A stretch of 64,000 bases of DNA from Escherichia coli (GCF_003790525.1 NZ_CP033635.1); one strand, 5' to 3'. Counted from the first letter of the stretch, positions 41,512 through 43,781 are shown. Numbers and translations: made by a program. The notes: generated by a model from the sequence alone, not told the origin.

Positions 41512-43781
41512 GTGTGCCCGGAGTTCAGGGCGGGCATGGATGCTTAAATGAACCGCGAGTCTGTCTGGAATATTGAACCGGTAACTCACGATGAGAAACC
41601 CAACAATCCCACCGGGTGTGACGGTGGAGAACCTGAGCGGCAGTGACCTGCGGCATGCCCGCAGGGTGATGTAACCCGCTGACAACGGGGATTGAGGCGA
41701 GATCACTAAGCCGAGATGATCCTCAAGGTTAAGTACTGAAAGGCTGAAGAACATGAACCCGTTAATCCGCCTCTGTGGGTTGAAAACGTCACCACGGCCT
41801 ACGTGATCTGACAGGCCGTGCAGGAGGAACTGGCAGTGATACGTAAGCACTGCCGGTCGAAGGTGTTTTGACATGTATGCGAAACACCGGGGCAGCAGCG
41901 TCTATCACGCTTGCATTGCTGACTTCTGCCAACTTGCGGCAAGCAAGGATAAAGAGTGCGACGGGCAGCCTCCTCAGTATGCCTGAGTCCAGGCCGGTAA
42001 ACCGGGGAAGGTCAGCGACGGATGTTAAGGGGGCATGGCTCCGATGACGCGCTGGCTGGCGGAGCTTCCGTAGTAGTCCGCGATGGGGAAAGCCCATTAC
42101 ATGGCGAAGGGAAGCAGTTTGAATGTGTTTGCGACGTGAATTAACTGACCTAACGAGGTGAAGACCTTTGATAATCAGCGAAATGCAACGCAAGCTTGCC
42201 ACATGGGCAGCCACCGATCCGTCCCTACGGATTCAACGGCTGCTGCGTCTGATAACACAACCAGAATGACTGGCTGAAGCGGCGCGGATCACGCTTTCAT
42301 CAAAGGGGGCCCATACCCCCGGCGTTGATGGCGTGAACAAAACAATGCTACAGGCCAGACTGGCTGTTGAGCTGCAAATCCTCAGGGATGAATTACTCTC
42401 AGGCCACTACCAGCCCTTGCCCGCCAGACGGGTTTACATCCCTAAAAGCAACGGCAAACTGCGACCACTGGGTATCCCCGCGTTGCGGGATCGTATTGTT
42501 CAGCGGGCCATGCTGATGGCGATGGAGCCGATATGGGAGAGTGATTTTCATACGCTCTCATATGGCTTCCGGCCTGAGAGCAGTGTCCACCACGCGATCC
42601 GCACGGTGAAATTACAGCTCACAGACTGTGGTGAAACCCGGGGACGCTGGGTGATTGAAGGCGACCTGTCCAGTTACTTCGACACCGTACATCATCGACT
42701 GCTGATGAAGGCTGTACGCCGCAGGATCAGTGACGCACGTTTCATGACTCTGCTGTGGAAAACCATCAAGGCGGGACATATCGATGTCGGTCTCTTTCGG
42801 GCGGCCAGTGAAGGTGTGCCACAGGGCGGTGTTATATCGCCGCTATTATCGAACATCATGCTGAATGAGTTCGATCAATACCTGCATGAGCGCTACCTGA
42901 GCGGGAAAGCCAGAAAAGATCGGTGGTACTGGAATAACAGTATCCAACGGGGCCGAAGTACGGCGGTCAGAGAAAACTGGCAGTGGAAACCCGCGGTGGC
43001 GTACTGCCGCTATGCCGATGATTTTGTCCTCATCGTCAAAGGCACCAAAGCACAGGCGGAAGCCATCAGGGAGGAGTGTCGGGGTGTGCTCGAAGGCAGT
43101 CTGAAACTCAGGCTGAACATGGATAAGACTAAAATCACCCATGTTAATGACGGCTTTATCTTTCTGGGGCACAGGATCATTCGCAAACGCAGTCGTTATG
43201 GCGAGATGCGAGTGGTCTCAACGATCCCGCAGGAGAAAGCCAGAAACTTCGCCGCATCGCTGACAGCACTGTTATCAGGCAACTACAGTGAAAGCAAAGT
43301 CGATATGGCTGAACAACTCAACCGAAAACTGAAAGGCTGGGCCATGTTCTATCAGTTCGTTGATTTTAAGGCCAAAGTCTTCAGTTATATCGACCGTGTC
43401 GTGTTCTGGAAGCTGGCTCACTGGCTGGCCCGCAAATACCGTACAGGTATCGCTTCCCTGATGAGGTGGTGGTGTAAATCACCGAAACCGGGTCAGAGCA
43501 AAACGTGGGTTTTATTTGGTAAAACCAATCACGGCAAGCTCAGCGGCGAAATACTGTACCGGTTGGTGGGGCAAGGCAAGAAGCTGTTCCGCTGGCGGCT
43601 ACCCGAAGGTAATCCCTATCTGAGGACGGAGACCAGAAACACGTATACATCGCGCTTTACAGAAGTGGCAATGGCGTTCGCCAGCATTTAAATGGAGAGC
43701 CGGATGCGCTGAAAGGTGCACGTCCGGTTCGGGGAGGAGAGGCAGGGAAATAGTCCGACTACGCCCTGCCTCTTACTCTAC
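41512..43781 (+). mobile_element. Bacterial group II intron (~2270 bp) with intron-encoded reverse transcriptase/maturase
   Basis: 5' GTGTG at 41512; RT ORF 42333..43691 with YADD active site; domain V gagccggatgcgc-tgaaag-gtgcacgtccggttc at 43698-43732; domain VI and 3' ...AC end at 43781. Confidence 0.75.
42333..43691 (+). CDS. Group II intron reverse transcriptase/maturase (no evident endonuclease domain)
   Basis: 452-aa ORF; RT motifs (PKSNGKLRPLGIP, YFDTVHH, CRYADDFVLIV) and C-terminal maturase-like region. Confidence 0.85.
   Translation: MNKTMLQARLAVELQILRDELLSGHYQPLPARRVYIPKSNGKLRPLGIPALRDRIVQRAMLMAMEPIWESDFHTLSYGFRPESSVHHAIRTVKLQLTDCGETRGRWVIEGDLSSYFDTVHHRLLMKAVRRRISDARFMTLLWKTIKAGHIDVGLFRAASEGVPQGGVISPLLSNIMLNEFDQYLHERYLSGKARKDRWYWNNSIQRGRSTAVRENWQWKPAVAYCRYADDFVLIVKGTKAQAEAIREECRGVLEGSLKLRLNMDKTKITHVNDGFIFLGHRIIRKRSRYGEMRVVSTIPQEKARNFAASLTALLSGNYSESKVDMAEQLNRKLKGWAMFYQFVDFKAKVFSYIDRVVFWKLAHWLARKYRTGIASLMRWWCKSPKPGQSKTWVLFGKTNHGKLSGEILYRLVGQGKKLFRWRLPEGNPYLRTETRNTYTSRFTEVAMAFASI

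Follow-up and report, generated by a model that had tools for sequence, protein, structure and literature searches.

E.c.I4 is a group II intron of Escherichia and Shigella that is near-identical to S.f.I1 and belongs to bacterial class A, whose intron-encoded proteins (IEPs) lack an endonuclease (En) domain (PMC3552965). It resides in insertion sequences (ISs), and IS629, IS911, ISEc16 and ISEc31 have been described as its hosts, with specific insertion positions (Leclercq & Cordaux 2012, PMC3522654). Two of the catalogued copies occupy hybrid hosts. For E.c.I4-3a, in the SHI-1 island of strain 55989, Table S2 of that study states that 'the IS host is a chimeric IS629/IS911', and for E.c.I4-15 of IAI39 the entry reads 'chimeric IS629/ISEc31'; the same authors proposed that intron/IS tandems are more prone to recombination. 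A similar situation is known from lactococci, where chimeric relaxase genes switch lineage exactly at the Ll.LtrB site, a pattern ascribed to intron-based exon shuffling at the DNA level (LaRoche-Johnston et al. 2020, PMC7947834). Here we describe a copy of E.c.I4 in a 64,000-nucleotide stretch of E. coli chromosomal DNA (NZ_CP033635.1), referred to below as the window, in which the exons on the two sides of the intron derive from different IS3-family elements.

The window copy shares with catalogued E.c.I4 both its homing position in an IS3-family orfB and an IEP that has reverse transcriptase (RT) and maturase (X) regions and no En domain. It differs from E.c.I4 in four private substitutions, one of which creates a nonsense codon (W29*), and it is predicted to be non-autonomous. 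Like E.c.I4-3a and E.c.I4-15, it joins the same intron to an IS629-type 5' exon and to a 3' exon from the IS911 family or another IS3 element, at exactly the same junctions. The events are nevertheless independent: in 55989 an IS1203-like 5' exon lies by tssH and a true IS911 3' exon by pic, whereas in the window an IS629-type element, here called IS629v, lies by a raffinose (raf)-type operon and ISEc52 lies by hsdM. The lactococcal chimeras likewise place exons of different lineages on either side of a group II intron, but those exons are related and their products functional, whereas the IS exons of the window lack DNA similarity and form an apparently dead composite. Ectopic recombination between other dispersed repeats of E. 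coli (IS elements, rrn operons, Rhs elements) also draws on portable homology, here 2.27 kb at >99% identity, and also yields new junctions and island mosaicism. E.c.I4 differs from those repeats in being a retroelement nested in other mobile elements, so the scar appears as a 'hybrid IS'. The window chimera is another independent instance of a known phenomenon and not a new kind of element; it lends support to the idea, put forward by Leclercq & Cordaux, that tandems of intron and IS favor recombination, and it parallels the intron-mediated exon shuffling of the relaxases.

The intron and its two exons

The composite element consists of three parts:

40717–41511, + strand: 5' exon, the first 795 nt of an IS629/IS1203-type IS3-family element (IS629v), from its identity to IS1203 and IS629v
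41512–43781, + strand: group II intron E.c.I4 (bacterial class A), a predicted decayed and non-autonomous copy, from comparison with E.c.I4-2b of E24377A
43782–44269, + strand: 3' exon, the last ~488 nt of ISEc52 (IS911 group), from its identity to ISEc52

The intron spans 2,270 nt. The 5' exon ends in ACTTACG and the intron begins with GTGTGCCC at 41512 (GUGUG, which fits the group II 5' consensus GUGYG); it ends in CTCTAC at 43781 (CUAC, which fits the 3' AY consensus), and the 3' exon opens with TCTGGACGGG. Uninterrupted IS1203 (ACTTACG/TCAGCAC) and ISEc52 (ACCTATA/TCTGGAC) give identical intron boundaries. Over its full length the intron differs at 8 of 2,270 nt (99.7% identity) from E.c.I4-2b of E24377A (4848623–4850892; coordinates from Table S3 of PMC3522654), and from its sequence we assign it to E.c.I4 and hence to bacterial class A. 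All eight differences lie within the 5' 1,085 nt, and the substitutions at intron positions 404, 484, 758 and 1068 are private to the window copy in an alignment of ten copies. Copies with 100% identity to this intron are present in strain 165 and in many other strains, and the DNA around the window intron is 99.8–100% identical to many complete E. coli genomes. Among the 5,426 complete E. coli genomes covered by our genome searches, 2,668 contain E.c.I4 matches, at up to 20 places per genome and ~5,461 places in all.

The 5' exon contains the left inverted repeat (IR; TGAGCCGCCCCGGG...), orfA (40771–41097), the frameshift region and the orfB codons up to ...VADFTY. Its identity is 95.6% to IS1203 (positions 1–797) and 99.5% to the intact 1,311-bp IS629v of strain MS 119-7. 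This IS629-type element is incomplete, in that it stops at the intron site and the right IR is instead of the ISEc52 type. The 3' exon contains the 3' part of orfB and the right IR (...GGCCAGTTTTTGTTGACCACTTCA), and is 99.8% identical to ISEc52 (position 763 to the end) and 95.5% identical to IS911. Searches with blastn gave no match of the 5' exon to ISEc52 or IS911, no match of the 3' exon to IS1203, and no detectable DNA similarity between IS1203 and ISEc52 or IS911. The switch from IS629-type to ISEc52 sequence coincides exactly with the intron insertion site, and joining the exons (41511/43782) restores an in-frame orfB reading. The original prediction had placed a group II intron at these positions, between flanks that derive from two IS types and join into a plausible IS3-family OrfB; the boundaries, the Rfam match to domains V and VI, the YADD motif of the RT and the reading frame all agree with it. 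Alignment to IS reference sequences matched the left and right flanks to different IS3 elements and to no single member. The left flank is IS629-like as predicted, and the right flank, described there as IS911-like, is more precisely ISEc52.

E.c.I4 also occurs in hosts that are not chimeric. It is flanked on both sides by IS629v in one locus (L009), by IS1203-like exons in another (L010), by ISEc52-like exons in two (L006 and L011) and by IS911 in one (L012). In the non-chimeric hosts of the IS629 type (L009, L010 and L017, the last described below) and of the IS911/ISEc52 type (L006, L011 and L012), the intron lies at homologous D-x-T-Y codons. Four host types, namely the IS629 type, the IS911/ISEc52 type and two other IS3 hosts, are cut within these codons, around the first catalytic Asp of OrfB. 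Two further IS3-type hosts were noticed, in strains 204446 (L013) and SMS-3-5 (L015), where the intron lies between ACATTACTTATA and TAAGGACC and between ACATCACGTACT and TGCGTACC, respectively. Neither of these hosts has a DNA-level match to IS629 or IS911, and the SMS-3-5 intron copy also carries an internal stop.

Origin of the chimeric element

We propose that the chimera arose when two E.c.I4 copies residing in different types of IS underwent homologous recombination, and we put the probability of this reading, based on comparison of sequences, at roughly 0.85. With no DNA similarity detectable between the two types, the junction cannot stem from homology between the exons themselves. E.c.I4 retrohomes into the conserved D-x-T-Y codons of orfB in several unrelated IS3-family elements. 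In the proposed course of events, an IS629-type element inside an IS1414 remnant, beside a raffinose-type sugar operon, would acquire the intron. RecA-type homologous recombination with a second, near-identical E.c.I4 inside an ISEc52/IS911-type element would then replace everything to the right of the crossover. The product would have the order seen in the window: IS629-type 5' exon, intron, ISEc52 3' exon and a type I restriction-modification (R-M) island. A shared DDE-region target site with recombination between two intron copies was the first of two alternatives in the original prediction, and it is the one favored by the non-chimeric hosts of both kinds together with the unrecombined and intronless left arms.

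The states of the left arm were recovered with a composite query consisting of the left context and the IS629v 3' exon. The arm (porin, IS1414 remnant and IS629v) is intact and intronless in plasmid pGF60-A (L019, 99.8% identity) and in the C012 chromosome (L018). It is occupied by the intron and not chimeric in STEC346 (L017), which has an IS629-type 3' exon and is collinear with the window over 14,132 bp, to 2 nt beyond the intron. The left arm is present in about 157 genomes, and most of the matches stop at the intron site. Comparison with strain 165 (L001) is particularly informative with regard to the other arm. There are 0 differences between the two sequences over window positions 35512–43881 and 20 differences over the 360 bp of 3' exon that follow, where the sequences correspond to two IS911-family variants; beyond the IS end, the hsdM region of the window and the lldP region of strain 165 are unrelated DNA. 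This pattern indicates that one left arm with its intron has been joined to two different IS911-family right arms. The exchange would accordingly lie between the last private single-nucleotide polymorphism (SNP) of the intron, at 42579, and position 43881. On the right-hand side, the ISEc52 fragment begins exactly at the intron site in all genomes that carry this hsdM.

Comparable chimeras are found at other loci and in both polarities. Strain 55989 has the order tssH, IS1203-like 5' exon, E.c.I4, IS911 3' exon and pic/SHI-1, and strain 17-07187 has the left arm of 55989 (99.8% identity over 4,786 bp) but with an IS629-type 3' exon. IAI39 contains an IS629/ISEc31 chimera with E.c.I4. A chimera of reverse polarity is present in strain Eco-15 (L020, positions 7001–10547), where an ISEc52 5' exon (100% identity) and an IS1203-type 3' exon (97%) flank an E.c.I4 copy with an intact IEP, adjoining papI and the pap island. 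More than 20 genomes match the reverse-polarity element in one uninterrupted piece.

Two other arrangements involving the same components were noted. In MS 119-7 (L007, positions 2455–3810), an intact IS629v (1,311 bp) stands directly before the terminal 45 nt of E.c.I4, and the ISEc52 3' exon and the hsdM known from the window come next; the sequence reads as an IS insertion or a deletion inside intron domain VI. Strain B771 (L003, positions 4296–6577) has the same IS629v 5' exon and an intact E.c.I4, but it retains no more than 12 nt of the IS911-type 3' exon (TCTGGACGGGTA), after which a DUF4942 gene with 90% identity to window positions 63419–64000 follows.

Several points weigh against intron–intron recombination as the origin of the chimera. 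The unrecombined right-arm parent, a complete ISEc52 with E.c.I4 beside this hsdM, was not found in the 5,426 genomes: a query made up of the ISEc52 5' exon, the window 3' exon and hsdM gave no record with at least 80% coverage, so only one parent is documented. The intron of L017 differs from the window intron at 8 sites and could be an independent insertion, not a direct ancestor. The private substitutions cluster at intron positions 404–1068 weakly (p about 0.05), which maps no crossover. Finally, that RecA acted in the exchange is something we infer.

The topology of the exchange (deletion, inversion or plasmid–chromosome) and the order of events are likewise inferred, with an inter-replicon event appearing plausible given the 99.8% plasmid identity of the raf-type segment. 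A test for a crossover inside the intron based on mosaic SNPs was rejected as evidence; 4 of the 8 differences are private and the others are shared polymorphisms. A search with 151-bp haplotypes found that near-identical intron haplotypes are widespread.

One could instead suppose that unrelated IS-mediated deletions and insertions happened to end at the intron boundaries, with no recombination between introns. The region is a rearrangement hotspot, as illustrated by the IS629v within domain VI in MS 119-7, by the 12-nt remnant of 3' exon in B771 and by the right end of IS629v, which abuts different DNA in L017, L018 and L019. Such a coincidence is nonetheless very improbable, because both exon ends match the homing site to the nucleotide, the 3' exon starts exactly where IS911-family hosts are cut, and the pattern is seen again elsewhere, in independent cases of either polarity.

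According to the second alternative in the original prediction, a hybrid IS629/ISEc52 element pre-existed and E.c.I4 later retrohomed into its conserved target site. The joined exons do form an uninterrupted, plausible OrfB frame, and the target motif would persist in such a hybrid. However, a 500-nt query spanning the intronless IS629v/ISEc52 junction gave no contiguous match in the 5,426 genomes. All 15 matches covering at least 80% of this query consist of two or three pieces spanning at least 1,060 bp, and the best of them is the intact IS629v inserted in intron domain VI beside the same hsdM in MS 119-7. The two elements also share no DNA similarity from which a hybrid could form exactly at the intron site. 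The left arm is known with a complete IS629v that is either empty or occupied by the intron, the same left arm and intron carry two different 3' exons, and a target-site duplication is absent. We consider this explanation largely refuted and give it very little weight.

Group II introns can produce chimeric mRNAs by intergenic trans-splicing (PMC7947834), and an origin at the RNA level could in principle involve such a transcript, or reverse splicing or retrohoming of intron RNA with a foreign exon attached, followed by reverse transcription. The two arms, however, run unbroken for many kilobases into distinct contexts, the left one into the raf operon and the right one into hsdMSR, which is too much DNA for a cDNA event, and the IEP of the window copy is predicted to be inactive; this route is extremely unlikely. 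An assembly artefact can be dismissed as having a negligible probability: a collapse or mis-join at a 2.3-kb repeat present at up to 20 places per genome is a familiar hazard, but the left arm runs through the intron site in about 150 independently assembled complete genomes, the full composite element was matched end to end in other genomes, and the junction from intron site to ISEc52 to hsdM is present in at least 30 independent genomes, most at 100% identity.

With recombination between intron copies as the preferred reading, the composite is best regarded as a fossil scar left by rearrangement, as opposed to an active mobile unit. This view follows from exons that are cut at the intron site, mismatched IRs, the lack of a target-site duplication (ACC precedes the left IS end and TCT follows the right one) and the nonsense codon in the IEP gene. 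As a hybrid with mismatched inverted repeats, the composite is not expected to transpose. For annotation, the locus should be described as an E.c.I4 pseudogene copy with the 5' fragment of an IS629-type element on one side and the 3' fragment of ISEc52 on the other, and a label of two partial transposases unrelated to each other should be avoided. The locus illustrates cleanly how, in nature, a group II intron serves as portable homology; the site in its empty and occupied states, both of the alternative recombinant right arms and the chimeras of reverse polarity can be retrieved from public genomes. Beyond annotation its significance is small, as it is an ordinary rearrangement scar on a known intron and raises no new question. 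A broader claim, that E.c.I4 copies in IS3 elements are an important and under-appreciated recombination substrate that repeatedly joins plasmid and island modules in E. coli, and whose spliced chimeras could encode hybrid transposases, seems to us doubtful. Were it true, the modules joined would include the raf-type operon and the type I R-M island and, elsewhere, the SHI-1/pic and pap islands, and spliced chimeric transcripts could encode hybrid IS629/IS911 transposases with new end specificities.

Ribozyme domains and intron-encoded protein

The following parts were distinguished within the intron:

41512–42182, + strand: ribozyme domains I–III and the start of domain IV, putative, from a complementarity scan and a minimum free energy fold
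42183–43691, + strand: IEP gene with RT and maturase X regions, a predicted pseudogene, from translation, Pfam and an 'internal stop' annotation
43697–43730, + strand: ribozyme domain V, from alignments to the Rfam Intron_gpII model and a plastid domain V (D5) model
43733–43781, + strand: ribozyme domain VI with the 3' splice site (...CUAC), from the Rfam Intron_gpII alignment

The Rfam Intron_gpII model (RF00029, domains V–VI) matches positions 43695–43781 with 64.9 bits, compared with a gathering score of 40. A bulged adenosine at 43775 is the putative branch point according to this alignment. At a permissive E-value, the Rfam D1–D4 models gave no match to the intron, and only the domain V/VI families were found. 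Domains I–IV are presumably intact, judging from their near-identity to copies that have an intact IEP; two of the private substitutions, at 41915 and 41995, fall inside the ribozyme part at 41512–42182. There are two candidates for exon-binding site 1 (EBS1). The first, UGUGGGU at 41774–41780 (intron positions 263–269), pairs 7/7 with the IS629-type, IS911-type and third host type by means of G-U pairs. The second, CGUAAG at 41842–41847 (intron positions 331–336), lies in a 9-nt hairpin loop and pairs 6/6 with IS629 only. The host variants show no covariation that would favor one of the two candidate sites.

The IEP gene comprises 502 codons from an ATG at 42183 and is interrupted by a TGG-to-TGA change at 42267–42269 (W29*). 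Pfam identifies RVT_1 (E 8e-34) and GIIM (E 1e-10) as the only domains, with no HNH or other endonuclease domain, and the YADD motif is present. The original prediction had described an RT open reading frame (ORF) with no evident endonuclease domain. The RT and the missing domain are confirmed, but the nonsense codon was overlooked: the 452-residue ORF (42333–43691) is the N-terminally truncated tail of the longer IEP gene and lacks the RT-0 region. In addition to W29*, the IEP carries V10A and R133S relative to the intact IEP of the L009 copy (annotated as WP_001189123.1). The Prokaryotic Genome Annotation Pipeline (PGAP) labels an identical copy 'ltrA, internal stop'. The window intron thus appears to be a decayed, non-autonomous copy whose IEP gene is a pseudogene, and its mobility and splicing would probably depend on an IEP provided in trans.

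Flanking modules

The following features lie within and around the composite element:

39924–40716, − strand: IS1414 (IS256-family) transposase gene remnant, which the IS629-type element truncates with its left end, from the ORF list and PGAP
41052–41168, + strand: ALIL programmed-frameshift pseudoknot of the IS629-type element, from Rfam (RF01497, 111.7 bits)
44462–46921: hsdM
46928–48238: S subunit gene
48248–49411: extra ORF of 387 residues
49426–52443: large R-like ORF

Upstream of the intron, window positions ~32300–41511 contain a raffinose-type operon (alpha-galactosidase, major facilitator superfamily transporter, GH32 hydrolase and porin), the IS1414 remnant and IS629v. PGAP annotates the remnant at an identical locus as 'IS256-like element IS1414 family transposase, missing N-terminus'. 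The whole segment is 99.8% identical to a segment of plasmid pGF60-A, which suggests a plasmid origin for the chromosomal raf-type module.

On the other side, the type I R-M cluster (44462–52443) directly abuts the right end of ISEc52; other strains have lldP, not hsdM, beside the same IS end. Between the right end of ISEc52 and hsdM, at ~44287–44337, two tandem copies of GTCT(G/A)TTAAACCTGTGGCGATTCA were spotted by eye. A truncated piece of IS911 (52588–52922) lies shortly after the gene for the type I restriction subunit; it corresponds to the first 335 bp of the element and is 98.5% identical to IS911 and 90.7% identical to ISEc52. The 3' exon at 43782–44269 belongs to another variant of the IS911 family. 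Further downstream, an Rfam match to IS102 RNA at 55988–56224 (60 bits, compared with a gathering score of 46) adjoins IS903/IS102-like ORFs.

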